This document shows positions 24,058 to 39,123 of a stretch of DNA of 39,123 nucleotides, piece after piece (position 1 is the stretch's first letter; each line of letters begins with the position of its first letter). The notes under the pieces are model-generated. The model saw nothing but the letters and a program-made list of their open reading frames with translations. It searched no databases and had not been told where the DNA came from. This DNA comes from a virus. The translations under genes and the position numbers were made by a program. Location: positions 1 to 39,123 of IMG/VR virus record IMGVR_UViG_3300034069_001319. One strand, given 5' to 3'.

Positions 24058-24132
24058 TGGCTCGGGGACAAGGGTTCGAACCTCGGTCTACGGGATCAAA
24101 ACCCGTTGCTCTACCAATTAAGCTATCCCCGA
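24058..24132 (-). tRNA. tRNA-Gln (anticodon UUG), CCA encoded
   Basis: Hand-folded cloverleaf. Acceptor TCGGGGA/TCCCCGA with U1:A72 and G73. D-arm GCTT-AATTGGTA-GAGC. Anticodon arm ACGGG-TTTTGAT-CCCGT. T-arm CGAGG-TTCGAAC-CCTTG. Total 75 nt. Confidence 0.9.
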
Positions 24133-24142
24133 ATGACGAATG

Positions 24143-24283
24143 CATTTCAGGCAGGATTCGAACCTGCAAAGACGTGGAAAACTGTTAACCTAGGTTCTTT
24201 GAGATGTACGTTACTTGTATCCACAAGCACAGTTTTTAGACTTTCGCCGTACATCGGCAACCTTACCATTCAGTCACTGAAGC
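24143..24283 (-). ncRNA. Aberrant tRNA-like element (141 nt): canonical T-arm plus a distant acceptor-like pairing
   Basis: The T-arm is GCAGG-TTCGAAT-CCTGC, followed by CTGAAAT-G. The 5' end GCTTCAG-TG-..AATGGTAA.. has U8/A14/GG-like features. The interior contains a perfect 8-bp stem, GATGTACG...CGTACATC. I could not fold it into a cloverleaf by hand. Confidence 0.35.
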
Positions 24284-24452: not shown

Positions 24453-25061
24453 TTAAAAATTATAAACAAAACCTGCTTGCACACCCAGATGCTGGCGCGC
24501 TTTGATAGCTCCTAGTTTGTGCTTAATCGCAGGAGTATAGGTGGCGCTGATGCGAGCACTGAGCGGACTTGTGGCATTAAATTGCAAGCCAACTAAAGCA
24601 CTGGGGGCAAGCTTGGCATTATTGATGCTGGGCTGACCATTAAGCTTTTGCTTGAGCTTCAAGTGCGAGACACCAAGGCCCAGGAGCACATTACAATCGC
24701 CTTGTATGGGTGAGCTAAAGACGGCTCTCAAGTCAATTTTGTGAGTCAAGATGGGGGGTAGTTTGTAAACATTTGTAATTTGGACCTTACCCAGGGCTTG
24801 CGTGCTTGTCACATCTTTAAGTTTGTGCTTATGAGCGCTTAGAGGGATGGTGGCTTCAATGGCCCAGTCAGGGTGAACACGTGCGCCTAAGATGACCTGA
24901 GGCTTGATGCGGCTGTGTCCTTTAGTCTTCTCAGTATGTAGTTTAGCAACCGAGCCCTCGATACCTAGGTAGGGACCAATCTCGTAAGAGCCTGAAGGGC
25001 AGTAGGGGGCGGCATAGGCGCTTGTGCTAAGCAAAGCTAGAAGGGTCAATGCTTTTTTCAT
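24453..25061 (-). CDS. Secreted small beta-barrel outer-membrane protein (OmpX/Ail/Lom-like class)
   Basis: Signal peptide MKKALTLLALLSTSAYA|AP. Alternating amphipathic strands. The terminal strand is GVQAGFVYNF, ending in Phe. The start is ATG 25061, or 25070. Confidence 0.7.
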   Translation of the reverse strand: MKKALTLLALLSTSAYAAPYCPSGSYEIGPYLGIEGSVAKLHTEKTKGHSRIKPQVILGARVHPDWAIEATIPLSAHKHKLKDVTSTQALGKVQITNVYKLPPILTHKIDLRAVFSSPIQGDCNVLLGLGVSHLKLKQKLNGQPSINNAKLAPSALVGLQFNATSPLSARISATYTPAIKHKLGAIKARQHLGVQAGFVYNF

Positions 25062-25215
25062 GGGGTCCATCCAACAATTGATTTGGCTTGAGCTTAGCGC
25101 AGAATGCGAATTGATACCAGTTCCACACATTAAGTGATCACAAATGCCCTTTTTTCACAAAAACATGCAAGCACTGCAATGATTGTTCTTGCATTTATAT
25201 CCGATAAACGCAATA

Positions 25216-26226
25216 ATGCAAGCACAGTCAACAGAAAAGGTAGTGATCTTGGATACAAAGAATAAACGCCCAGGTGGTCTAGCACGTGCCAAAGCTTTGT
25301 CACCAAAAAGACGGCAAGAAATAGCCAAACAAGCGGCGCAGGCTAAATCGGACATAGCACGCAATGAGGCAACCGCTTTAGGTAATTTACGCATAGCTGA
25401 TAAAACAATCTCGTGTGTAGTCACACAAAACGGAACACGTTTAATCCGCGCCGCTAACATCTTCGAAACCTTTGGTCGCACACCCAGAGGATACAAAAAA
25501 CTGAATCGAACAATAATCAGACCGCCATTTATGGATGCTATCAATCTAGAACCATACATCAGCGCTAATTTGGAAGAACTTCTAAAGCCTGAGAAATTTA
25601 AAGACGTCAATGGTAAAAGCGCCATGGGTTATAAAGCCGAAGTTTTGCCTGAAATCTGTTTAACCTATTTGAAAGCTGAACGCGCTAAAGCATTAGCGCC
25701 AAGTCAAAAAAGAATGGCCGAACTTTCACATATTATTATTGCCGCCTTATCAACCGTTGGTATCATTGCTTTAGTTGATGAAGCCACAGGTTATCAAAAA
25801 GACCGGGCTAAAGACGCTTTAGCTAAAATTCTGGAAGCTTTCATAGATAAAGAATTACGCGATTGGGTAAAAACATTTCCGACCAGTTTTTATGAGGAAC
25901 TGTTTCGACTAAATGGCATGGAATTAACAGATGAAGCACTGCATAAAAAACCTATAAAATTCGCAAATATGACCAACAATATTGTTTATCAAAGATTAGC
26001 GCCAGGATTATTAGATGAGCTAAAACGCGTCTCTGCACGTAACGAAAAGGGTAATTTAAAACATCGCTATCATCAAAGATTAAGTAGTGAAACTGGATAC
26101 GTGAAATTGAAAGAACATTTAGCAAGCGTCATTTCAATCATGAAACTATCAGATGATTATCAAGATTTTAAAACTAAGCTAGAAAGATTGCACCCAAAAT
26201 GCCAAATAGAAACAAATGAAAATTAA
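25216..26226 (+). CDS. P63C-domain protein
   Basis: GIIALVDEATGYQKDRAKDALAKILEAFIDKELRDWVKTFPTSFYEELFRLNG...NIVYQRLAPGLLDELKR...HRYHQRLS matches the P63C domain pattern as I recall it. The N-terminus GGLARAKALSPKRRQEIAKQAA also fits. The start is ATG 25216, or TTG 25183. Confidence 0.75.
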   Translation: MQAQSTEKVVILDTKNKRPGGLARAKALSPKRRQEIAKQAAQAKSDIARNEATALGNLRIADKTISCVVTQNGTRLIRAANIFETFGRTPRGYKKLNRTIIRPPFMDAINLEPYISANLEELLKPEKFKDVNGKSAMGYKAEVLPEICLTYLKAERAKALAPSQKRMAELSHIIIAALSTVGIIALVDEATGYQKDRAKDALAKILEAFIDKELRDWVKTFPTSFYEELFRLNGMELTDEALHKKPIKFANMTNNIVYQRLAPGLLDELKRVSARNEKGNLKHRYHQRLSSETGYVKLKEHLASVISIMKLSDDYQDFKTKLERLHPKCQIETNEN

Positions 26227-27901: not shown

Positions 27902-28516
27902 ATGAGTATAAGAAGCGATGAATTCACCAAATTTGGCTCCACGGAAATTGTGGACCCAGGTTATATCCGTGATGAAGCCTACATAACTCTAAAGGTTCTA
28001 GAGCAAGCTGGGGCCAAACCCATTTTAGATCCATCATACCTTACACGCCTTGAACAGGGCTTGGAGCTGGAGTATGACGGTGAAGATTGCTTTGAAATCT
28101 TTGACCCTATTAAAGATGCCATTGTCTGGCTTTTGCAGCGCAACAAGGGACGCTTGCGGTTCCATGTTTTAAAAGCTAAGTTTGAAAAACAATTTTGCGG
28201 TTTTCAATTGCCTTATGAGGATGACTTTCAATCAGCTATTGAATTGTTGTTTTTTGAAGATCGCAAACTAGAAGGCAATGATGGCTACTTCCATACCTGG
28301 CATGGCTGGATGGAACACTTGCTAGCTGAAGGCCAGACAAGCTATCCGGAAATCATTGAAACCGCCCGTGAGATGGGTGCTACCAAATATGACGCTTTGA
28401 AACATTTGGCTGAGACGCTCAAAGAAAGTCATTGGTGTGCCGAGCATATAGCACAAGCCCTTCGCAAAGCAGGCGCAGGTAGAACGCGCATCGCACAACT
28501 TAGCTGTGTTGCTTAA
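27902..28516 (+). CDS. Hypothetical protein (204 aa), possible HTH-like C-terminus
   Basis: ORF with a GGAAAC RBS-like sequence. The C-terminal helices are SYPEIIETAREMGATKYDALKHL and HIAQALRKAGAGRTRIAQL. Confidence 0.5.
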   Translation: MSIRSDEFTKFGSTEIVDPGYIRDEAYITLKVLEQAGAKPILDPSYLTRLEQGLELEYDGEDCFEIFDPIKDAIVWLLQRNKGRLRFHVLKAKFEKQFCGFQLPYEDDFQSAIELLFFEDRKLEGNDGYFHTWHGWMEHLLAEGQTSYPEIIETAREMGATKYDALKHLAETLKESHWCAEHIAQALRKAGAGRTRIAQLSCVA

Positions 28517-28527
28517 CTTATAGCTTT

Positions 28528-28543
28528 CCCCACAACCGTGGGG
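28528..28543. terminator. Hairpin between convergent genes (possible bidirectional terminator, no U-tract)
   Basis: CCCCAC-aacc-GTGGGG, a 6-bp GC-rich stem. Confidence 0.3.
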
Positions 28544-28566
28544 GTGTTCGCCTTAGTGCTAGAGTG

Positions 28567-29232
28567 TCAATCAGGCAGCGATGCGTAATAGCGTATCTCC
28601 TCACGCTGCATCTGCTTGTCGTACAACGTGTTTTGCTTCCAAATGCTCTCTTTGATGTATTTAAAAATATCAAAATTTGTGTTTTCAGTCTCACCCGCGC
28701 CAAATTGATAATATTTCCACAACTCACGTTTGGTTTTGGGCTCATGCTGTTTCACCCACTCATTAGCAGGCCTTGAGCCGCTTCTTATCCACATCATCAA
28801 CAGGTGCCGCTCGGCTAACTCCGTGTTGCAGGATTTCTGCAAGTCCTCAAGGGTTATCAAAGGCTCGTTTTGCGTCTCAGTTCGATTCTGCCGGCCATGC
28901 TTGGCTAAAAAATGAAACTGATTAGGTCGTGGGTTGTGCTTAAACTCCTCTTGCATACCCGATAAGACCACAAAGAGCGCGCGCACAATTTGCATGAAGG
29001 TCAAGTCCCCAATGGCTTGTGCCCAAAGCTTGGCTTTCAACTCAAACTCACTCTCTGGCCTATCAAAGCATTCATAGTCGCCAAAGTAGACCGCAAGCTT
29101 GATGAGCAGAAAGTGCATAAAAGCTAGTTGGTCAGATTCCTGATAATGGTCTAATTGCAAATTGCGTGCCCGCATGTCATTGAGCGTCGCTTGACTGTAA
29201 ATCTCACTTAGCTTGGAATCAAACTCACTCAT
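28567..29232 (-). CDS. Possible lambda-P-like replication (helicase-loading) protein (221 aa)
   Basis: It lies directly downstream of the initiator gene with an 8-nt overlap. KLWAQAIGDLTFMQIVRALFVV...NPRPNQFHFL resembles the lambda P stretch RRQWVLAF..ITTMEQVNAGMRVA..RPFLPSPGQFVAW as I recall it. Confidence 0.45.
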   Translation of the reverse strand: MSEFDSKLSEIYSQATLNDMRARNLQLDHYQESDQLAFMHFLLIKLAVYFGDYECFDRPESEFELKAKLWAQAIGDLTFMQIVRALFVVLSGMQEEFKHNPRPNQFHFLAKHGRQNRTETQNEPLITLEDLQKSCNTELAERHLLMMWIRSGSRPANEWVKQHEPKTKRELWKYYQFGAGETENTNFDIFKYIKESIWKQNTLYDKQMQREEIRYYASLPD

Positions 29233-30208
29233 GGGACAATTCTTTGTTTCTGTTTACTGGAGGTTTTAGCTCAATAGAGCCAAGAAGCTTCTGAATGCTT
29301 TGCAGGCCTGCCGATTCACGCTGCGCTCGCGAGCAAACTCTTGAGCTTTTCAGCTGCGAAATCTGTGCATCGGTCAGTATCGGGTCTAGGTATCTTTTCT
29401 TCCACAACCAATTCGAGCCGTAAATAGGCATACAAGGCAAGAACTTGTTAAGCCTAGCTACCCTAGCGTGCATGTCTTTTTGTGCCTCTATGGCGCTTAT
29501 CAGGGCCTCTAAGCTATGTGTCTTGAGGCTACGTGCCAAATGTTTACCTACGTTCTCCTCCCCCCCCTGGCTTGGATAGCTTTTGTTAAAGACTTCTGTG
29601 GCTTGTGACAGGCTTATTTCTTTTCCCTGATATGAAAAATTTTTACTACCACCGCGCTCACCCCTTTGGGGGGTAGGGGGGTTAGTTGTTGTTTTTGTTT
29701 TAGTTTTATTGTTGTTATTACTTATTCTTATTAGCGTGCGGTTTTCCGAATGCGGAATAACCGAATGCGGAAAACCGCTTTCCGGTAAAACCTCTTGTGC
29801 CCCTTGAGTTTGCAATAAACGAGGCAATAATGCTTTCATCAAATCTGGTGACTCAAAAACCAGGGTTATCCAAGCGCCAAAACGACCCTTTTGGCCACGG
29901 CTTTGATAACGATAAACATACCCGGCTGCTGACAATTCATTGATACCGCTCCGAGTCGCGCAAATACCATCTCGTGCTCGACTGGAAATTTCTTTCAAGC
30001 AAACATTCCAAGTTTTGACATTGTCTAGCAATACGAGAAGCAAGCCTTTAGCTTTAAAGCTTAGATGCGGACTTCTAACAGGCTCATGATGCAACTTGGC
30101 AAAAGTGTCTCGGTTGTATTTGAAGATGTTGATGCTGTCTTGCCTATCGTCTAATTGATCTACGTATTCGGCAATTTGTTGAAGGGTGTAGTTGTCGTTT
30201 GTTTCCAT
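29225..30208 (-). CDS. Replication initiator (winged-helix N-domain, lambda-O-like organisation, 327 aa)
   Basis: LSFKAKGLLLVLLDNVKTWNVCLKEISSRARDGICATRSGINELSAAGYVYRY...GRFGAWITLVFESP fits the HTH_36/Rep winged-helix pattern. The mid-gene linker holds repeats and an AT-rich tract. Confidence 0.65.
   Translation of the reverse strand: METNDNYTLQQIAEYVDQLDDRQDSINIFKYNRDTFAKLHHEPVRSPHLSFKAKGLLLVLLDNVKTWNVCLKEISSRARDGICATRSGINELSAAGYVYRYQSRGQKGRFGAWITLVFESPDLMKALLPRLLQTQGAQEVLPESGFPHSVIPHSENRTLIRISNNNNKTKTKTTTNPPTPQRGERGGSKNFSYQGKEISLSQATEVFNKSYPSQGGEENVGKHLARSLKTHSLEALISAIEAQKDMHARVARLNKFLPCMPIYGSNWLWKKRYLDPILTDAQISQLKSSRVCSRAQRESAGLQSIQKLLGSIELKPPVNRNKELSHE
29661..29790. promoter_or_regulatory. 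Candidate replication origin inside the initiator gene
   Basis: CCGAATGCGGAA occurs twice (29746-29757 and 29761-29772). An 11-bp inverted repeat GCGGTTTTCCG/CGGAAAACCGC lies at 29738-29748 and 29768-29778. An AT-rich tract of about 55 bp spans 29681-29735. CCCCTTTGGGGGGTAGGGGGG lies at 29661-29681. Confidence 0.5.
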
Positions 30209-30209
30209 G

Positions 30210-30428
30210 TTATTTAACTTCCTTGTTAGTCCTGCAGCTTCTTACTAGTTGCTTTATTTGTTCGACAGCCTCCTCTACAGAAAGCGTAGGGTCGTCATAG
30301 ATTTTGTCGAACCAAGCTTTTGGTACCAAAGTATATTGACTTGGGTCATAATCGATACTTTGTATGGATTCGTGTACAACCGTCACATTGCAGTTATCGT
30401 ATTCATCATCATGTTGTTTCGACATCAT
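30210..30428 (-). CDS. Hypothetical acidic protein (72 aa)
   Basis: ATG at 30428 with a GAAGGAG RBS (MMSKQHDDEYDN...). Confidence 0.5.
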   Translation of the reverse strand: MMSKQHDDEYDNCNVTVVHESIQSIDYDPSQYTLVPKAWFDKIYDDPTLSVEEAVEQIKQLVRSCRTNKEVK

Positions 30429-30491
30429 TACTCCTTCACTTGCAGCCCTGGTTCGCAAATCTTCTGCAGGCCGCAGATTGTAAATCCTAGC

Positions 30492-30510
30492 TAGATAATC
30501 AACTTATCTA
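30492..30510. promoter_or_regulatory. Palindrome TAGATAA-tcaac-TTATCTA upstream of the replication operon
   Basis: 7-bp inverted repeat with a 5-nt spacer, read from the sequence. Confidence 0.35.
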
Positions 30511-30544
30511 ATCCATTTCCTAAATTTCAGACAAAATAAACCCT

Positions 30545-30566
30545 GCCATAGGCTTAAGCCATAGGC
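30545..30566. repeat. Direct repeat GCCATAGGC x2 (13-nt period) around the palindrome GGCTTAAGCC
   Basis: GCCATAGGC lies at 30545-30553 and at 30558-30566. Confidence 0.6.
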
Positions 30567-30594
30567 ATAGATTTTAATTAGTTTTGTAACTTGG

Positions 30595-30625
30595 TTGACA
30601 CGTGATGTGGTTGTGGCTGTAGAAT
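30595..30625 (+). promoter_or_regulatory. Sigma70-like promoter: TTGACA, 19-nt spacer, TAGAAT
   Basis: A perfect -35 at 30595-30600 and TAGAAT at 30620-30625. The spacer is long. Transcription would run antisense to the minus-strand early genes. Confidence 0.4.
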
Positions 30626-30832
30626 GTAGCCATCGAGGGCAGCAGACGTTATTCATGATTTTTCCTATGGGTTATGGATGACTGAGCCATGTAAAGCGCT
30701 AACTTTGCATGACTCGCTGACCTCAAACCATAACAGAATGCTTGAACTCGATCTAGCTAAAATGAAAAAAAACTGAAAAAAGAAAAAACTAACATCTTAA
30801 TAACTGCTCATAACAGACCCCGATTATTGCAA

Positions 30833-30988
30833 TCATTTTTTATCTAATGCTCGCAATACTTTTTCAAATAATATTAATATGTACTTAACAAAGTAAAAGG
30901 CACAAGCAACAGGCCATATAATCTTAAGCGACAATGTAAAGAGCTCAAAGAAAGACGCATTGTTTATCCATATATTAAATGCTTGCAT
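30833..30988 (-). CDS. Small hydrophobic ORF (51 aa)
   Basis: My translation is MQAFNIWINNASFFELFTLSLKIIWPVACAFYFVKYILILFEKVLRALDKK. It starts 3 nt after the upstream stop. Confidence 0.35.
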   Translation of the reverse strand: MQAFNIWINNASFFELFTLSLKIIWPVACAFYFVKYILILFEKVLRALDKK

Positions 30989-30991
30989 TGC

Positions 30992-31234
30992 TTACTCCTG
31001 GCTATTTGTTTTTGTGTTAGGTCCTAAAATATAATAAGGGTCAAAATAGGGAGGTATTTTATCTATAGTGACAAATTGACCTAAACCTAAAATACCTTCA
31101 TGCAATGAAAAAGATACGTCCATTCGATACAAGCCATCTTTTAGATGCAATGTATTATTTGCATGTTTTATGACTTTTCTCAATTGAGCTTTAATCTCAT
31201 CACCATTAATCATAAAACAGGGTCTATTCTGCAT
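30992..31234 (-). CDS. Hypothetical protein (80 aa)
   Basis: ORF only; low GC. Confidence 0.45.
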   Translation of the reverse strand: MQNRPCFMINGDEIKAQLRKVIKHANNTLHLKDGLYRMDVSFSLHEGILGLGQFVTIDKIPPYFDPYYILGPNTKTNSQE

Positions 31235-31293
31235 TAAAAGTCTCCAACAGAAATTTTTGCACTAGTTATTGTCAGCATTCATTTTCCAACATC

Positions 31294-31662
31294 CTACAAA
31301 AAATCGAATAAACCAGGCCCACCAACTAAAAACCAATTTTCAGCATAATAAATAAAGTGTTGTACATCCCAACCACCCTGGGATGCTAAAGCATGAACAT
31401 GAGCGTATATTGTGTAATCTAAAAATTTTTTCATGGCCGATTCATTACGGCAAAAACAAATATCTGCTCGAAATGGTTGCTTATCAATACGCGCAAATGT
31501 AATGACATTATTATCATTAATGTTTTGACGGGCAAAGATAATACAATCATCATTCTTCGCTTGCGCCGGCAGATATACTTTGTCAATGTGCGGTTGCAAT
31601 ATATAGGTATGGTTAGGCTGTGCTATGATAATTGAGTCCATACCTTTGTCAATGTTAGTCAT
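31294..31662 (-). CDS. Hypothetical protein (122 aa)
   Basis: ORF only; low GC. Confidence 0.45.
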   Translation of the reverse strand: MTNIDKGMDSIIIAQPNHTYILQPHIDKVYLPAQAKNDDCIIFARQNINDNNVITFARIDKQPFRADICFCRNESAMKKFLDYTIYAHVHALASQGGWDVQHFIYYAENWFLVGGPGLFDFL

Positions 31663-31942
31663 CCTTCAATTTTTCATCCTTAGCCGCAAAATAAGCAAGC
31701 GCCATTAAGTTGTATAACAATTGCTGCACGCCTGCTAGTTTGTCAATTTCCTGCGTGCTGGATTCGTTTTTGTTGTCAGAAACAGTCATCAGAACGGCTT
31801 GCTGTAATGCAATAAAATCGTAATGTTTAACTATGAATTTATCAAATGCGTGACTTGCATTCGCACGCTCTGTTACTTCATCAAGCAGCTTTTTACCACC
31901 TGGCAACAATTCATCAAGTATGTCTTTCGCTATGTCTTTCAT
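31655..31942 (-). CDS. Hypothetical protein (95 aa)
   Basis: ORF only. Confidence 0.45.
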   Translation of the reverse strand: MKDIAKDILDELLPGGKKLLDEVTERANASHAFDKFIVKHYDFIALQQAVLMTVSDNKNESSTQEIDKLAGVQQLLYNLMALAYFAAKDEKLKDD

Positions 31943-31947
31943 GTGTA

Positions 31948-32739
31948 TTATTCCTGGCTATTGTCGTTTACAAACGCATTCCATAAATGCGTATAAATCA
32001 TCTGATGTGCAGCTTTTACTTGTGCTTCCCAAACAGCGCACGCTATTGGGTCTTTTTGGTCTAGTGTTTTGTAGGCTGTGAAAAACTGAAGCAATTGTGC
32101 GTTTAACTCATTAAGCCTTGCGTTTTGTCGATCATGTAATTGTTCTTTAACACGTGCTTCTTTTTTTGCTAATAATGGATTTTCACCTGCCTTAACCAAG
32201 GCGCGCCAAGCGTCCCGATTGACTCGTGCTTGACTTAAGCTAACCTCTGGATATACGCCCAAAGATGCGCACCGCACACGACCTGCATGCTTATATTTGA
32301 TGCGCCAATACTTACTACCTCGGGGGTGAATTTCCATGAACAAACCACCGCCATCGAAAAGTTTGTAAATACGTGCGCGGATAGGGGCTTCAGCTATAAC
32401 TTCTTCCCTTAAGACATTGATTCGCTTGTTTTGCGTTTGTTGTTTAGTCACTGGATTAGGCTGTGAAGCTATCTTTGGTTTTTCTGGTCTTGTGCTATAA
32501 GGCGATTTGACGCGCTCAACAGGTTTTAAAGTGCCATCTTGCAATAAACGTTCTAAATCGGCACGAGCCCAGGCAACATTGCGCGCTCCAAGATAGACAG
32601 GCTTTGGATAAATGCCTGTTTTGATACCCGCATACCAAGTTGTGCGCCCAACCGGGAACACGGCTTTTATAGGCGGGTTATTATTTTTATCACCTAAGAT
32701 TTCACGTATTTTGAAAAATGGTTTATCTGGTAGATACAT
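31948..32739 (-). CDS. AlpA-type HTH fused to an integrase arm-binding N-domain (DUF4102-like); no recombinase catalytic domain (263 aa)
   Basis: FFKIREILG...VGRTTWYAGIKTGIYPKPVYLGARNVAWARADLERLL fits the AlpA/HTH_17 pattern. KLFDGGGLFMEIHPRGSKYWRIKYKHAGRVRCASLGVYPEVSLSQARVNRDAWRALVKAGENP fits the P4-type integrase N-terminal arm-binding pattern. The protein ends about 65 aa later. Confidence 0.7.
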   Translation of the reverse strand: MYLPDKPFFKIREILGDKNNNPPIKAVFPVGRTTWYAGIKTGIYPKPVYLGARNVAWARADLERLLQDGTLKPVERVKSPYSTRPEKPKIASQPNPVTKQQTQNKRINVLREEVIAEAPIRARIYKLFDGGGLFMEIHPRGSKYWRIKYKHAGRVRCASLGVYPEVSLSQARVNRDAWRALVKAGENPLLAKKEARVKEQLHDRQNARLNELNAQLLQFFTAYKTLDQKDPIACAVWEAQVKAAHQMIYTHLWNAFVNDNSQE

Positions 32740-32741
32740 AG

Positions 32742-32939
32742 CTATAAGCTCTTTATTTCTGTTGTAAATGTTGCTAATTCTTTAATAACTTCATCGACCT
32801 GAGCATATGCCTTAATATATGCACCTTGCATCAGATGCTCACGAACTTCTTTAAATTGTTGCACAATTGGTTCGATGAATTCTATAAAATAACGATTCAA
32901 CTGCGCTTGGCTGCATTTTGCAGGCGGGGCTTCATGCAT
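32742..32939 (-). CDS. Hypothetical protein (65 aa)
   Basis: ORF only. Confidence 0.4.
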   Translation of the reverse strand: MHEAPPAKCSQAQLNRYFIEFIEPIVQQFKEVREHLMQGAYIKAYAQVDEVIKELATFTTEIKSL

Positions 32940-33438
32940 ATTTCACCATGGCTTGATAATAGAATTCATCCTTATCTTCATCTAGGCTCACGCAAATCCC
33001 TCCCTGAGGTACCCAGTTATCACGTATAGCCTCTTTTACGCTTAACTCAAATCGCTTGTAATCTAATGAGGTGATTGTTTTATAATCTATGACTTTTTTA
33101 CTTGCTTGCGCCTGACTTACATTGTGACTTACCGGTTTTGTCGGCATATTGCTTTGCAGGCCGTATGTTTCAATTGAGTCTTTCGTGTGTGTTTTGTTAT
33201 TAACAAATTCAACAAAAGCACTTGTAAACTCGTGAGAGCAAACATTTCGTTGTAAAACAGCTTTTTGACATAAGTTTACGCATATATAGCCATAATGCTT
33301 AAATTGCAAAGTTAATTCATGCAAACCTGGTCCGATGTTGTGTTTTCTAATGAGGTTTTCTATAAGGTCAAACAGTGGGGCTGCTTTTTCCATTGCGGCG
33401 GCATCATTATCTATGTCAAGTTTGATTAATTCTTTCAT
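32932..33438 (-). CDS. Hypothetical protein (168 aa) with a DUF1737-like C-terminus
   Basis: The C-terminus DYKRFELSVKEAIRDNWVPQGGICVSLDEDKDEFYYQAMVKY resembles the DUF1737 pattern (..GW.P.GG......y.QAM). Confidence 0.45.
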   Translation of the reverse strand: MKELIKLDIDNDAAAMEKAAPLFDLIENLIRKHNIGPGLHELTLQFKHYGYICVNLCQKAVLQRNVCSHEFTSAFVEFVNNKTHTKDSIETYGLQSNMPTKPVSHNVSQAQASKKVIDYKTITSLDYKRFELSVKEAIRDNWVPQGGICVSLDEDKDEFYYQAMVKYA

Positions 33439-33462
33439 TCATCGCATCCTTCATTTGTTTCA

Positions 33463-33657
33463 TTAGTCTTTTAAAAAACGGTCTAAGCAATCAACTAATT
33501 TGCGCCTTTGAAAAACACCCTGGCCACGTGGCCACAACACTTCAATATCCCAATACTTGCGCGGTATCATGCAGTGGGCTTGAGACACCACAACTTCAAG
33601 CTCATCGCGAGTCTCTTTGCGCAGATAATAAATGGTTCTAGAATTTCTAATTCCCAT
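33463..33657 (-). CDS. Hypothetical protein (64 aa)
   Basis: ATG at 33657 (MGIRNSRTIYYLRK...), with an 11-nt overlap with the upstream gene. Confidence 0.4.
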   Translation of the reverse strand: MGIRNSRTIYYLRKETRDELEVVVSQAHCMIPRKYWDIEVLWPRGQGVFQRRKLVDCLDRFLKD

Positions 33658-33868
33658 CGGTTTTGAGCTCTTGACTTGCAGCTTGTAGGGCATTGAGCTT
33701 CTCAAGCACATATTGCCGATAGCCAAAATTAAAATCTTTAAGCAAGTCAGCGATTAATATTAGCTTTTCATCGAGTGTTTTATGTGAAAGTTTACGTTTA
33801 TAGTTATTAGCAATCAAAAAATCATCTTTGATTCTATCTAGCAGAAAATCTTCAACCTTTTTTGCCAT
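33647..33868 (-). CDS. Hypothetical protein (73 aa)
   Basis: ORF only. Confidence 0.4.
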   Translation of the reverse strand: MAKKVEDFLLDRIKDDFLIANNYKRKLSHKTLDEKLILIADLLKDFNFGYRQYVLEKLNALQAASQELKTDGN

Positions 33869-34046
33869 TTTTAGCCCCTTTTGTAAGCTTTAACCCTTCA
33901 AGGATGAAAGTGCGTATGATATGCGCCCTGGAATAACGTAATCTTTTAGCCAATTTGCAGACCTCGGCATAATCACGCACATGCACTTCAAGGCCTAATT
34001 TTTGCCTCGGTAAGTCTATTGTTAATAATTCATTGTCAAAATTCAT
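33852..34046 (-). CDS. Ribbon-helix-helix (CopG/Arc-like) regulator candidate; first gene of the leftward early operon
   Basis: MNFDNELLTIDLPRQKLGLEVHVRDYAEVCKLAKRLRYSRAHIIRTFILEGL shows a beta strand followed by two helices with the S-R-x-x-I-I-R signature. An alternative ATG lies at 34061. Confidence 0.5.
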   Translation of the reverse strand: MNFDNELLTIDLPRQKLGLEVHVRDYAEVCKLAKRLRYSRAHIIRTFILEGLKLTKGAKNGKKG

Positions 34047-34055
34047 GGTGTTCTC

Positions 34056-34084
34056 TTGCATTATAAAAACCACCAGCATATACT
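34056..34084 (+). promoter_or_regulatory. Sigma70-like promoter for the rightward recombination operon: TTGCAT, 17 nt, TATACT
   Basis: The -35 lies at 34056-34061 and the -10 at 34079-34084. The -10 sits inside the conserved 13-mer at 34075-34087. An AAGGGA RBS and the ATG at 34114 follow. Confidence 0.45.
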
Positions 34085-34113
34085 AGCGACCTATAGAATA
34101 CAAGGGATCAGCT

Positions 34114-34347
34114 ATGTACACCATCAACCTACAAGAAGTCAGGCATTTGCACAAATTAAGCTTAGAGGCTTTAAACCAATTAGGCTTAATCCACCAAGAC
34201 CACGCTTTGAGCCCAGGGCTTTTGGAGCGTCACCTGCAAGCGGCTAAACACGCGCTTAATGCCTTGCTTGCAGACTTGGGCGTTTTTATTGCCATACTTA
34301 ATGATGATGAAAAGATGAGCCTACCAAAGGATGCAGAAGATGCATGA
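34114..34347 (+). CDS. Hypothetical protein (77 aa), first gene of the rightward operon
   Basis: ORF with an AAGGGA RBS. Confidence 0.5.
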   Translation: MYTINLQEVRHLHKLSLEALNQLGLIHQDHALSPGLLERHLQAAKHALNALLADLGVFIAILNDDEKMSLPKDAEDA

Positions 34348-34591
34348 TGAAAGCGTGTTGGTTGATGCTTTGAGGCGCGCGGAAACCATCGGTAACAGAC
34401 TTTTGCAACAAGATGCTATGCAAGGTGCAATGAAAACCTATCAGGACGAACTGGCAGCACTCTCAACGCTTTTGTGCATGAAAAGTGCAATGGGTGATCC
34501 AAAACGCTTTCCTGAGATGATTCACGACATTGTTATAAATGCTTTTCTCCTTGGTATTAACGCCGCAAACAAAAAAGGATTAGAATCATGA
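34331..34591 (+). CDS. Hypothetical protein (86 aa)
   Basis: ORF only. An alternative ATG lies at 34340. Confidence 0.45.
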   Translation: MQKMHDESVLVDALRRAETIGNRLLQQDAMQGAMKTYQDELAALSTLLCMKSAMGDPKRFPEMIHDIVINAFLLGINAANKKGLES

Positions 34592-35178
34592 ACGACATCA
34601 TATCTTTACTGCGTCAAATGCAACTTGCAATAAAATGCCCGAAAAAAAAGAAAAATGAGTATGCCGGATACATGTATCGCACTTGCGATGACATTATGGA
34701 AGCGGCCAATAAAGCCATCCCTGAAGCTTGCTCAGTCGGCGTCAGTGATGAGGTGGTCCTCATTGGTGAGCGCTATTATGTCAAAGCAACAGCATCTTTT
34801 CTGCATGCCGGACAAAGCATTGACCGCACAGGATACGCCCGCGAACCTCTCGTTAAAAAGGGTCAAGATGAGCCGCAAATCACCGGAACCGCAAGTTCTT
34901 ATGCCCGTAAGTTAGCTTTAAGCGGGCTTTTGATGCTTGATGATGGGGTAGATGATGACGCAACCAATATGCACATTGAGCCTATGACCCCACCGGGTAA
35001 GCCCATTGAGGGCCTAAGCGTTATTGAAAATCTGCGCAATGAAATAAAAATACGCCAAAATATCAATCCTAGTTACAAAAGGGCGGTTGAGGTGGTACTC
35101 ACTAAAAAAGATAAAAAGTTGAACGACTTAGATGAAGAAGGGTTAGAGTGGCTACTGAAATTAAGTCTTAAGGATTGA
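34588..35178 (+). CDS. erf: ERF-family single-strand annealing recombinase
   Basis: YMYRTCDDIMEAANKAI...VSDEVVLIGERYYVKATASF...QITGTASSYARKLALSGLLMLDDGVDDD closely parallels P22 Erf as I recall it (YKYRSCEDILEGVKPLL, SDEIVLIGDRYYVKATATI, QVTGATSSYARKY.LNGLFGIDD). Confidence 0.85.
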   Translation: MNDIISLLRQMQLAIKCPKKKKNEYAGYMYRTCDDIMEAANKAIPEACSVGVSDEVVLIGERYYVKATASFLHAGQSIDRTGYAREPLVKKGQDEPQITGTASSYARKLALSGLLMLDDGVDDDATNMHIEPMTPPGKPIEGLSVIENLRNEIKIRQNINPSYKRAVEVVLTKKDKKLNDLDEEGLEWLLKLSLKD

Positions 35179-35180
35179 GA

Positions 35181-35654
35181 ATGACCGTGCTTACTGAAGG
35201 GCTTGCCGATTTTACCATTGAATGGATTGAGCAGCATGTATCACGTGCGGGTAATCTGAGCATCAAGCTGAAACTAAAGCTCGTAAAAGATGACCAGACG
35301 ACAATCGCCTACGAGTATTTGTCTCATGGTTCACGCAAACGCCTACAAAGCTTTTGTGACTCTCTACAAGTGCCTTTGCCTGAAGGCCGGCTTGTAGATT
35401 GCGACAATCGCGCTTTGCTGCAACTAAAAGGGGCCACGGGAGTTGCGCGTATTCGCGTTGAGCAAAGTGATGGTTACCCTGAGCGTAATCGAGTATCTCT
35501 ATGGCTCAAACCTGAAAGCAAATCGGACAAGCATCAGCAAAGCCTAGACAACTTACAAAATCAAGTCGATTTTATAAAGAATAATCCGGTGCATAACAAG
35601 CACATAGAGGCAAATTCTGATATAGCTATTAATTTGGATGATGTGCCCTTTTAA
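35181..35654 (+). CDS. DUF669-like putative ssDNA-binding protein with an SSB-type C-terminal DDVPF tail
   Basis: ATG at 35181 with an AAGGA RBS. It ends ...INLDDVPF, resembling the bacterial SSB acidic tip DDDIPF. It follows erf directly. Confidence 0.5.
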   Translation: MTVLTEGLADFTIEWIEQHVSRAGNLSIKLKLKLVKDDQTTIAYEYLSHGSRKRLQSFCDSLQVPLPEGRLVDCDNRALLQLKGATGVARIRVEQSDGYPERNRVSLWLKPESKSDKHQQSLDNLQNQVDFIKNNPVHNKHIEANSDIAINLDDVPF

Positions 35655-35665
35655 GGACAAGTTGC

Positions 35666-35836
35666 ATGAATGATAAAATAAGACAAGCCTTGGATGCATT
35701 AGATGCTTTGTGCGTTGAGCTTGAAGCAGAAGAGGTCTGGTGGGCGGCAGCTAAGCTTGGTATTATTGAGGGAATTTTGCGGCAAGAATTGGCTGATGGT
35801 GAATCATGGATAGCGACAGCTACAGAGAAACTGTAG
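35666..35836 (+). CDS. Small ORF (56 aa)
   Basis: My translation is MNDKIRQALDALDALCVELEAEEVWWAAAKLGIIEGILRQELADGESWIATATEKL. Confidence 0.35.
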   Translation: MNDKIRQALDALDALCVELEAEEVWWAAAKLGIIEGILRQELADGESWIATATEKL

Positions 35837-35976
35837 AAATACTTATTTGTCTTTTTGTGTGCCTTATCCTCATCCTCGTCATGACAGCTTTCATGTTTTT
35901 ACATGGGACTGACAAGAAGCAATTATATAAACATCTAAAATTTGAAAGCCTTGAGAATGTGCAACACTCAAGTTAG
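35806..35976 (+). CDS. Small single-pass membrane ORF (56 aa)
   Basis: My translation is MDSDSYRETVEILICLFVCLILILVMTAFMFLHGTDKKQLYKHLKFESLENVQHSS. Confidence 0.35.
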   Translation: MDSDSYRETVEILICLFVCLILILVMTAFMFLHGTDKKQLYKHLKFESLENVQHSS

Positions 35977-36028
35977 CCTTATACCATCTTCCATGATAAC
36001 GTTACATCAATAAAAAAAGGAAAACAGC

Positions 36029-38259: not shown

Positions 38260-39123
38260 TTAAGACAGTAATGTTGAATCTGCAATCCAGTGACCCATCA
38301 CATTAGGAATGTTGCCTACAAGTGTGCCTGATGTGTTGTTCTGCACATTGAACCCGCTGGGGGTGATGTTTGCGGCATACAAATTATTGCTGGTTCCGGA
38401 ATCTGTGACGGTTGACGTATTACCAGAATTATAAAAACTCGCGCTATTTAGCATGGAGTTTAAAACCGAATACATGCTGACACGCGGTGTATAAAGCTTA
38501 GGTACGGAAAACTGCACATTGCCATAGCTTTGGCCTGCTTGAATGGGGTTGCCTGAGTAACCCACAGCTGGATAGATTTGGTAGCCTGCGCTGTTATTGG
38601 TGGCAGGTGCCACACCCAGTGCATAAGTTTTTTCGATTAGCATCTGGCAGCGTTCATAATCCAGGCGATAGTCGAGTGGGGTGTAGACGGGCGCACTTGT
38701 GGGTCCGCAATACAAATTATTCAACTTCCAATTTTCAGCAGCTGAAACAGCGGCCACATATTGCATAACGAAAAAAATGGTGATTTGCGTGGTGGCGGCT
38801 GGAAGCGTGCCTAAACTTACTTGATAAGTTTGCACACCCGTAGCACTTGTGGGCACGCTAACGGTGGGTTGTAGTGCGCTTGCGCCATAGGTCGTATTGG
38901 TAAGGCTGCCCGCCCGATTACCACTGGTAATCAAGAGATTTGAATCGGTCGTACCCGTACCATAGTAGCCACCTACCGTGAAAAGGCTGGTACCGTTTAA
39001 AAGAGATGCCGGCCAAATGGTTGATAAGGCAATACTTACAGTTTGTCCGGCCCAAGTTTGCATAAAACGACTTGGAATATTTGCGGTTAGATAGCATAAA
39101 TTCCCATTCGCAGGCGCTGATGA
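38260..39123 (-). CDS. C-terminal part of the wrap-around type-B tail-fibre paralog (5' end at window nt 405)
   Basis: The reading frame stays open to the window end. DYERCQMLIEKTYALGVAPAT and the C-terminal GHWIADSTLLS align with the paralogs. Confidence 0.8.
   Translation of the reverse strand, partial: SSAPANGNLCYLTANIPSRFMQTWAGQTVSIALSTIWPASLLNGTSLFTVGGYYGTGTTDSNLLITSGNRAGSLTNTTYGASALQPTVSVPTSATGVQTYQVSLGTLPAATTQITIFFVMQYVAAVSAAENWKLNNLYCGPTSAPVYTPLDYRLDYERCQMLIEKTYALGVAPATNNSAGYQIYPAVGYSGNPIQAGQSYGNVQFSVPKLYTPRVSMYSVLNSMLNSASFYNSGNTSTVTDSGTSNNLYAANITPSGFNVQNNTSGTLVGNIPNVMGHWIADSTLLS
38983..39123. repeat. Terminal overlap copy 2 (identical to 1..141)
   Basis: Same as copy 1. The unique genome length is 38,982 bp. 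Confidence 0.95.

Follow-up and report, generated by a model that had tools for sequence, protein, structure and literature searches.

What use could a phage with no recombinase of its own have for the DNA-reading parts of an integration module? The question is raised by a single gene in the window, by which we mean the whole 39,123-nt stretch of viral DNA analyzed here (IMG/VR record IMGVR_UViG_3300034069_001319). The gene (31948-32739, minus strand; 263 aa plus stop) lies tightly packed in a minus-strand early operon. The original prediction was that its product joins an AlpA-type helix-turn-helix (HTH) at residues 8-65 to a tyrosine integrase arm-type DNA-binding domain at about residues 125-190, with the ORF stopping about 65 aa later, in a closed genome where the catalytic core is missing and no recombinase is encoded.

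The arm domain was recovered where it had been placed. Pfam Arm-DNA-bind_3 (PF13356) matches residues 122-195 (E=1e-19, 70.9 bits against a cut-off of 27), and a 397-position profile, built from 102 full-length P4-type integrases gathered by homology search, aligns its positions 3-97 with residues 110-204 of the fusion ORF (106.6 bits). Sequence matches in the PDB come from the HAI7 and HPI integrases, whose arm domains are represented by 3ju0 (E=3e-18), 3jtz and 3rmp. The same entries were returned by Foldseek for the AlphaFold2 (AF2) model of the domain (pLDDT >95), which superposes on 3ju0 with an rmsd of 0.7 Å and 43% identity over 79 aligned columns. In an alignment of 61 sequences, all 14 of the 14 invariant or near-invariant arm-domain positions are retained. 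Residues 110-204 (32128-32412, minus strand) thus comprise, by Pfam, profile, PDB and Foldseek, a complete P4-type arm-type DNA-binding domain together with the next helix.

For the HTH, the Pfam call was marginal: Phage_AlpA (PF05930) matches residues 31-62 with 21.3 bits against a cut-off of 21 when the full protein is scanned, and with 22.2 bits (E=1.3e-4) when the N-terminal 110 aa are scanned alone. We therefore built a separate AlpA profile from which the query was excluded, seeding it with a fragment of 8c3t and iterating on the ORFs of 80 IMG/VR P4-type integrase loci. This profile matched the fusion ORF firmly (38.2 bits, E=7e-11, residues 28-61), and the ORF was its sole match among 1,174 six-frame segments of the window. 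The PDB entry 8c3t itself, an AlpA family regulator, is matched weakly (E=0.11) over residues 23-67. The predicted domain is thus present, but its limits shift from 8-65 to about 23-67, and these three lines of evidence place an AlpA/Xis-type winged HTH at 32539-32673 (minus strand). AF2 is unsure of the N-terminus (pLDDT<50, residues 1-51), where the first 50 residues are modeled without confidence because no sequence aligns to them; a word-indexed search with the N-terminal 110 aa alone returned no candidates. Judged by sequence, both domain assignments, AlpA HTH and integrase arm domain, are sound.

Between the two domains lies a linker of about 40 aa (residues 68-109; 32413-32538, minus strand), in which Pro, Lys and Gln abound. 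It is basic, with a net charge of +7 over residues 71-109, and mostly devoid of predicted secondary structure in the AF2 model. Beyond the arm domain, a C-terminal segment (residues 205-263 plus stop; 31948-32127, minus strand) occupies the position that core-binding and catalytic domains would have; 67 aa separate the Pfam arm match from the end of the ORF, close to the length expected. Helix 188-227 extends from the arm domain in the model and then folds back on helix 231-261, with block-mean pLDDT of 86-97 over this two-helix stretch; within the C-terminal segment the block means are mostly 86-91, and the last three residues fall to 69. The hairpin matches no Pfam or PHROG family and shows no similarity to the integrase profile beyond position 97.

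Is this protein, then, an integrase? It has the arm domain (PF13356) of the P4 type. The central core-binding domain (Phage_int_M / SAM-like) finds no Pfam match in it, with the profile alignment ending at position 97 of 397, and the catalytic domain (PF00589; active site R-K-H-R-H/W-Y) is absent both from the protein and from the six frames of the genome. With these two defining domains absent, the fusion protein is not an integrase. Nor is it a typical AlpA/Xis protein: members of that family are small, single-domain and accompanied by a cognate integrase, whereas this one is a multi-domain protein of 263 aa without a partner integrase.

The absence of a recombinase holds for the genome as a whole. 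When every stop-to-stop segment of at least 20 aa in all six frames was searched with the integrase profile, all filters off, the fusion ORF was the only match, the next best having E=1.1. No frameshifted catalytic remnants are therefore present downstream (31000-31948) or elsewhere; such remnants, had they been found at this maximum sensitivity, were to have marked the gene as a pseudogene product. The remaining ORFs, down to a length of 90 aa, were scanned against Pfam and PHROG, and no tyrosine or serine recombinase and no transposase came to light. These ORFs include those for the portal, large and small terminase, major capsid, internal virion and tail proteins, a GH108 lysin, Erf, RusA, a replication initiator and a P63C protein, along with a weak match to a Lom/Ail-like outer-membrane beta-barrel. 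Repressor, integrase and partition genes were not detected in the phage genome. A 386-aa orphan ORF was considered as a cryptic recombinase and rejected, being Thr/Ser/Gly-rich with no PDB or Pfam match; by composition and position it looks like a tail fiber.

Bases 1-141 are identical to bases 38983-39123, and this exact 141-bp terminal duplication agrees with a complete genome, circularly assembled or terminally redundant, as had been supposed. It represents either direct terminal repeats or the overlap of a circular assembly, leaving a unique length of 38,982 bp. Resemblance of the structural genes to those of HTVC010P-like and epsilon15/phiV10-like podoviruses is limited to ~27% identity, and relatives of the portal protein are confined to the HTVC010P and epsilon15/phiV10 types at the same level. 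Megablast of 28000-36000 against 50,697 phage records gave no match, nor did scans of IMG/VR uncover relatives when the queries were the fusion protein, the portal protein, the replication initiator and the upstream 168-aa ORF. We note that this HTVC010P/epsilon15-like podovirus carries lambdoid-style accessory genes (24453-25130, minus strand; 25183-26226 and 34588-35178, plus strand; and RusA), a set made up of the weak Lom/Ail-like beta-barrel match, P63C, Erf and RusA.

We then asked how unusual the combination of domains is. The fusion protein forms a one-member cluster. A phmmer search of 1.84 billion representative proteins gave 13,188 matches at E<=0.001, and among the best 150 of these, which we inspected, none is full-length and none reaches the HTH; they cover query residues ~72-245 only, that is, the arm domain and its immediate flanks. 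One caveat here is that weaker matches to the N- or C-terminus alone would fall outside these 150. The 80 best IMG/VR arm-domain loci consist of 69 full integrases, 9 truncated ones and 2 that are disrupted or split, and an N-terminal HTH occurs in 0 of the 80. The unfamiliarity of the pairing, remarked on in the original prediction, is borne out by both surveys: the combination is rare, and what is new in it is how two familiar domains of a single known functional module are arranged.

Several candidate stand-alone arm proteins were discarded in the course of these surveys. H1 and H34, from phage records, are full or long integrases, and L082 and L086 are disrupted or split ones; L086, L043 and L011 serve, for contrast, as examples of truly truncated or split integrases. 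In L082 (4944-5540, an IMG/VR provirus), the integrase ends after the arm domain and is followed by sequence that translates to a twice-repeated peptide (TPTDVGKT...KRKHPHGRGED...ETPPRTWGRP), with alpA directly upstream. This arrangement suggests that a repetitive DNA element was inserted in the integrase.

Given that 11 of the 80 loci hold truncated or disrupted integrases, which are common in viral contigs, the gene might be a relic without function, in which the 5' part of a xis-int module is left over and stays open by chance in a lineage that lost integration. Its singleton status, the lack of a full-length relative among the matches listed, a C-terminal tail without relatives and the failure to find target sites in the genome are all in keeping with that idea. 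However, the ORF is intact at 263 aa and close-packed against both neighbors, with 2 nt between the upstream stop and its start and 5 nt between its end and the start of the next ORF. A ribosome-binding-like AAAGAG precedes its ATG, and no overlapping ORF longer than 53 aa competes with it. Catalytic and core-binding remnants are absent in every frame, and the arm domain retains both its high profile score and its full complement of conserved positions. GC3 is uniform at 0.33-0.37 across the four parts of the gene; because all parts are equal, the arm segment is compositionally unremarkable and does not have the look of a recent import. Moreover, the tail is predicted to be a regular helical hairpin, unlike the out-of-frame junk seen in P0179, P0231 and L082. 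These data argue against simple decay, and we consider a functionless relic unlikely. The suggestion that the gene is the remnant of a decayed integrase survives in one respect, namely that an integrase origin is likely.

How might such a gene have arisen? Homology to the arm domain begins at integrase profile position 3, which corresponds to residue L110 of the ORF, so the integrase N-terminus has been kept entire, and the fusion joint falls right at the integrase start. Among 51 related IMG/VR loci with upstream flank, 7 have a co-directional AlpA-like gene ~0.3 kb upstream of the integrase arm match; a downstream alpA is commoner, occurring at 26 loci. Two codons before L110 there is an out-of-frame ATG (32415-32417, minus strand; junction sequence AATGTCTTAAGG), at the site where the ancestral integrase start (M-x-L-T-D) would be expected. 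This ATG is weak evidence and may be a vestige of the fusion; it is suggestive that a one-base deletion from ATG-TCN-TTA-AGG would yield the present frame. Taken together, the point where homology sets in, integrase residue 3, and the alpA→int tandems seen in related loci make it probable that such a module gave rise to the gene through an in-frame fusion and the loss of its 3' part. In this scenario, a co-directional alpA→int pair would have fused in frame at the integrase start codon, the 3' two-thirds of the integrase would have been lost after the arm-domain helix, and the remainder would have been kept as a regulator.

Early-operon context gives no functional hint, since the neighboring genes are all orphans. 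PADLOC models matched neither the fusion ORF nor any of 8 neighboring ORFs, and the fusion protein is not a defence-system component.

More can be learned from arm domains found in other proteins. In 52 of 155 top matches, the arm domain is joined to at least 40 aa of sequence unrelated to integrases, with some of the tails looking like out-of-frame junk. The P0041 family has a conserved C-terminal tail common to 10 representatives, and a search with this tail family returned 6 short fragments only. On independent contigs, the P0041 and P0154 genes lie directly upstream of, and overlap, the gene of a full P4-type integrase. In the one P0041/L003 pair compared, the arm-only protein and the integrase have arm domains that are 49% identical. 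In L003, the arm-only gene (518-1015) and the integrase gene (1006-2247) form a conserved metagenome gene pair, as do their counterparts on the P0154 contigs; the P0041-type arm-only protein is ~150-165 aa long and its gene overlaps the start of the P4-type integrase gene. P0003, the closest arm-only protein other than truncated integrases, combines an arm domain with a coiled coil, and its gene belongs to a phage early region that also contains ERF and SSB. Arm domains also occur in tandem, with five in P0121 (839 aa) and three in P0125, and P0266 (L002 1699-2730) joins an HNH domain and two arm domains to a C-terminal AlpA-like HTH, next to an integrase gene and a xis-like gene.

The P0121 and P0125 arrays and the combination in P0266 indicate that the arm domain behaves as a reusable DNA-binding module outside recombinases. 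A literature search (DUF4102, Arm-DNA-bind_3, arm-only proteins) found no description of stand-alone arm-domain proteins or of an integrase partner of the P0041 kind. phrog_3423, tried as a marker of stand-alone arm proteins, was rejected as a plain arm-domain model; it scores far above the broad integrase family phrog_1 in P0003, P0041, P0066, P0144 and P0126, that is, in all arm-only proteins tested.

The make-up of P0266 invites the thought that the fusion protein is the DNA-targeting part of a homing-endonuclease-like selfish gene, whose nuclease was lost or never present. AP2 domains occur in phage HNH homing endonucleases, and the fold of the arm domain shows a weak resemblance to the DNA-binding repeats of AP2 (6sy0, E=0.12). 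However, a nuclease domain is absent both from the fusion protein and from the adjacent ORFs, and we regard such an origin as highly improbable.

Another alternative is that the protein acts in trans on the att sites or the integrase of a P4-type island, satellite or prophage resident in the host. It might compete for arm sites as a dominant negative and so block the recombination complex, force excision as a tethered recombination directionality factor (RDF), or recruit the host integrase, the act of piracy raised in the original prediction. Precisely this pair of domains reads accessory sites in P4-type att regions, and the phage has no integrase of its own. Besides, the P0041-family genes immediately upstream of P4-type integrases suggest that arm-only proteins may work alongside integrases, and P0266 adjoins an int and xis pair. 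An attP-like site on the phage would fit such a role, and the tRNA 3'-end-like fragment at 24143-24170 (minus strand) had been put forward as a substrate. This element has the form of a T-arm-like hairpin, and a genuine tRNA-Gln(UUG) gene (24058-24132, minus strand) lies just downstream of it. The hairpin reads GCAGGTTCGAATCCTGC, followed by CTGAAATG. No exact copy of a 25-mer of the fragment, spanning T-arm and acceptor strand, occurs in 185,579 species genomes (GTDB). Rfam offers only a sub-threshold YrlA-like match at 24074-24198 (21 bits against a gathering score of 69), and nothing resembling an arm-site array surrounds the element. On the first two grounds we rejected the fragment as attP; it may be a decayed second tRNA. 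These results weigh against action in trans, inasmuch as no attP-like site is evident; arm-type repeat arrays were likewise not found in the genome, and PADLOC provided no match. We consider trans action, which draws on indirect evidence throughout, quite doubtful. A more specific version, in which a single-chain mimic of excisionase plus arm domain would seize the att accessory sites of a resident P4-type island or satellite and so lock it into the chromosome as a defense against satellites or islands, force it out, or borrow its integrase so that the phage itself could integrate, strikes us as decidedly unlikely.

The second substrate proposed, the direct repeats at 30545-30566, fared no better. 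They consist of two exact copies of GCCATAGGC, arranged as GCCATAGGC-TTAA-GCCATAGGC. With one mismatch allowed, 17 sites were found (9.7 expected), scattered genome-wide and mostly within coding regions. On the coding (minus) strand, the pair forms part of a weak hairpin (ΔG -14.2 kcal/mol, z -1.7) with a U tract after it. The repeats lie in a 375-nt non-coding gap (30459-30832) that interrupts the array of early genes on the minus strand. Antisense to these genes, on the plus strand, the gap contains TTGACA (30595-30600) and TAGAAT (30620-30625) separated by a 19-nt spacer, and an A-rich run is present at 30759-30790. The gap could be an operon boundary, encode an antisense or small RNA, or serve as an origin. 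In the phage genome at large, no exact word of at least 13 nt occurs three or more times, and no candidate binding motif stood out by eye in the intergenic regions. Sequence alone allows no target-site proposal.

The location of this gap, between the fusion gene and the replication genes, bears on the possibility that the protein is an accessory factor for replication or recombination, binding at or near the phage origin or working with Erf or RusA instead of regulating transcription. The fusion gene and the replication-initiator gene share an orientation, the former lying 1.7 kb upstream, with erf across the divergent junction, and P0003 likewise comes from an early region containing ERF and SSB genes. 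However, an iteron-like array was not found in the genome, and the association with Erf amounts to two cases in which the gene orders differ. A role of this kind seems to us very unlikely.

What remains firm is that an intact early-operon protein joins two DNA-binding modules of the kind that read P4-type att accessory sites, in a chain for which recombination catalysis is impossible. We favor the view, with confidence that stands about midway between doubt and conviction, that it is a non-catalytic two-site DNA-binding protein, salvaged from a P4-type integration module and used as an early-expressed regulator. A single chain carries the AlpA/Xis HTH, the flexible basic linker of ~40 aa, the complete arm domain and the hairpin, and would be expressed from the early minus-strand operon of a podovirus-like, recombinase-less phage. 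We infer DNA binding, oligomerization, target and regulatory outcome alike. The protein would recognize a composite target in which an RDF-type site lies beside an arm-type site, and the C-terminal hairpin would probably mediate oligomerization. Once bound, it would bend or bridge DNA and thereby repress or activate transcription, or otherwise organize the DNA.

Known systems offer partial parallels to such a regulator. With P4-type integrases (CP4-57 / HPI / HAI7) the fusion protein shares the full arm domain from integrase residue 3, carried in residues 110-204. It differs from them in having neither Phage_int_M nor Phage_integrase, in the internal rather than N-terminal position of the arm domain, and in the unrelated hairpin that follows. 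With the AlpA / Vis / TorI / VefA family it shares, in residues ~23-67, the motif ...T.Y..IK.G.[FY]P.P..LG.R.VAW...[DE]. Characterized members of that family are single-domain proteins of ~60-100 aa encoded beside their integrase, whereas here the HTH is the N-terminal module of a 263-aa protein in an integrase-less genome. The stand-alone arm proteins (P0041, P0003, P0121, P0125, P0266) resemble the fusion protein in carrying the arm domain outside a recombinase, with a short non-integrase tail or an AlpA HTH. None, however, has its HTH-linker-arm order or its C-terminal tail, and the P0041 type has a cognate integrase next door.

Lambda Xis and the Int N-domain form a cooperative complex on attR, and P4 Vis and P2 Cox have dual roles as excisionases and regulators. 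The lambda Xis-Int and KplE1 TorI/IntS systems use the same two kinds of DNA-reading module at adjacent accessory sites, and the fusion protein resembles a single-chain version of them. In those systems each module has a protein to itself, and the arm domain is part of a recombinase that is active, whereas in the fusion protein they are covalently joined and non-catalytic. For KplE1, the RDF TorI and IntS are described as jointly repressing the intS promoter, which overlaps attL with their binding sites (PMC2951348). AlpA-family proteins are reported as RDFs or regulators (PMC3014918, PMC5148205, PMC7379572). XisF4 of Pf4 is described as both excisionase and regulator.

Tethering an excisionase-type HTH to an arm domain yields, in one chain, a natural counterpart of the accessory complex by which the direction of recombination is set. 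Were the protein to bind composite sites, it would offer a compact model for the cooperation of RDF and arm contacts; targets located in host islands or satellites would make it a new kind of interference between phage and mobile element; and should it be no more than a regulator or a relic, it would be a small example of domain salvage after the loss of lysogeny. The fusion also points to an under-described class of arm-only proteins. Arm-binding domains are usually treated as parts of recombinases, and the fusion protein and these arm-only proteins show that they circulate independently as well.
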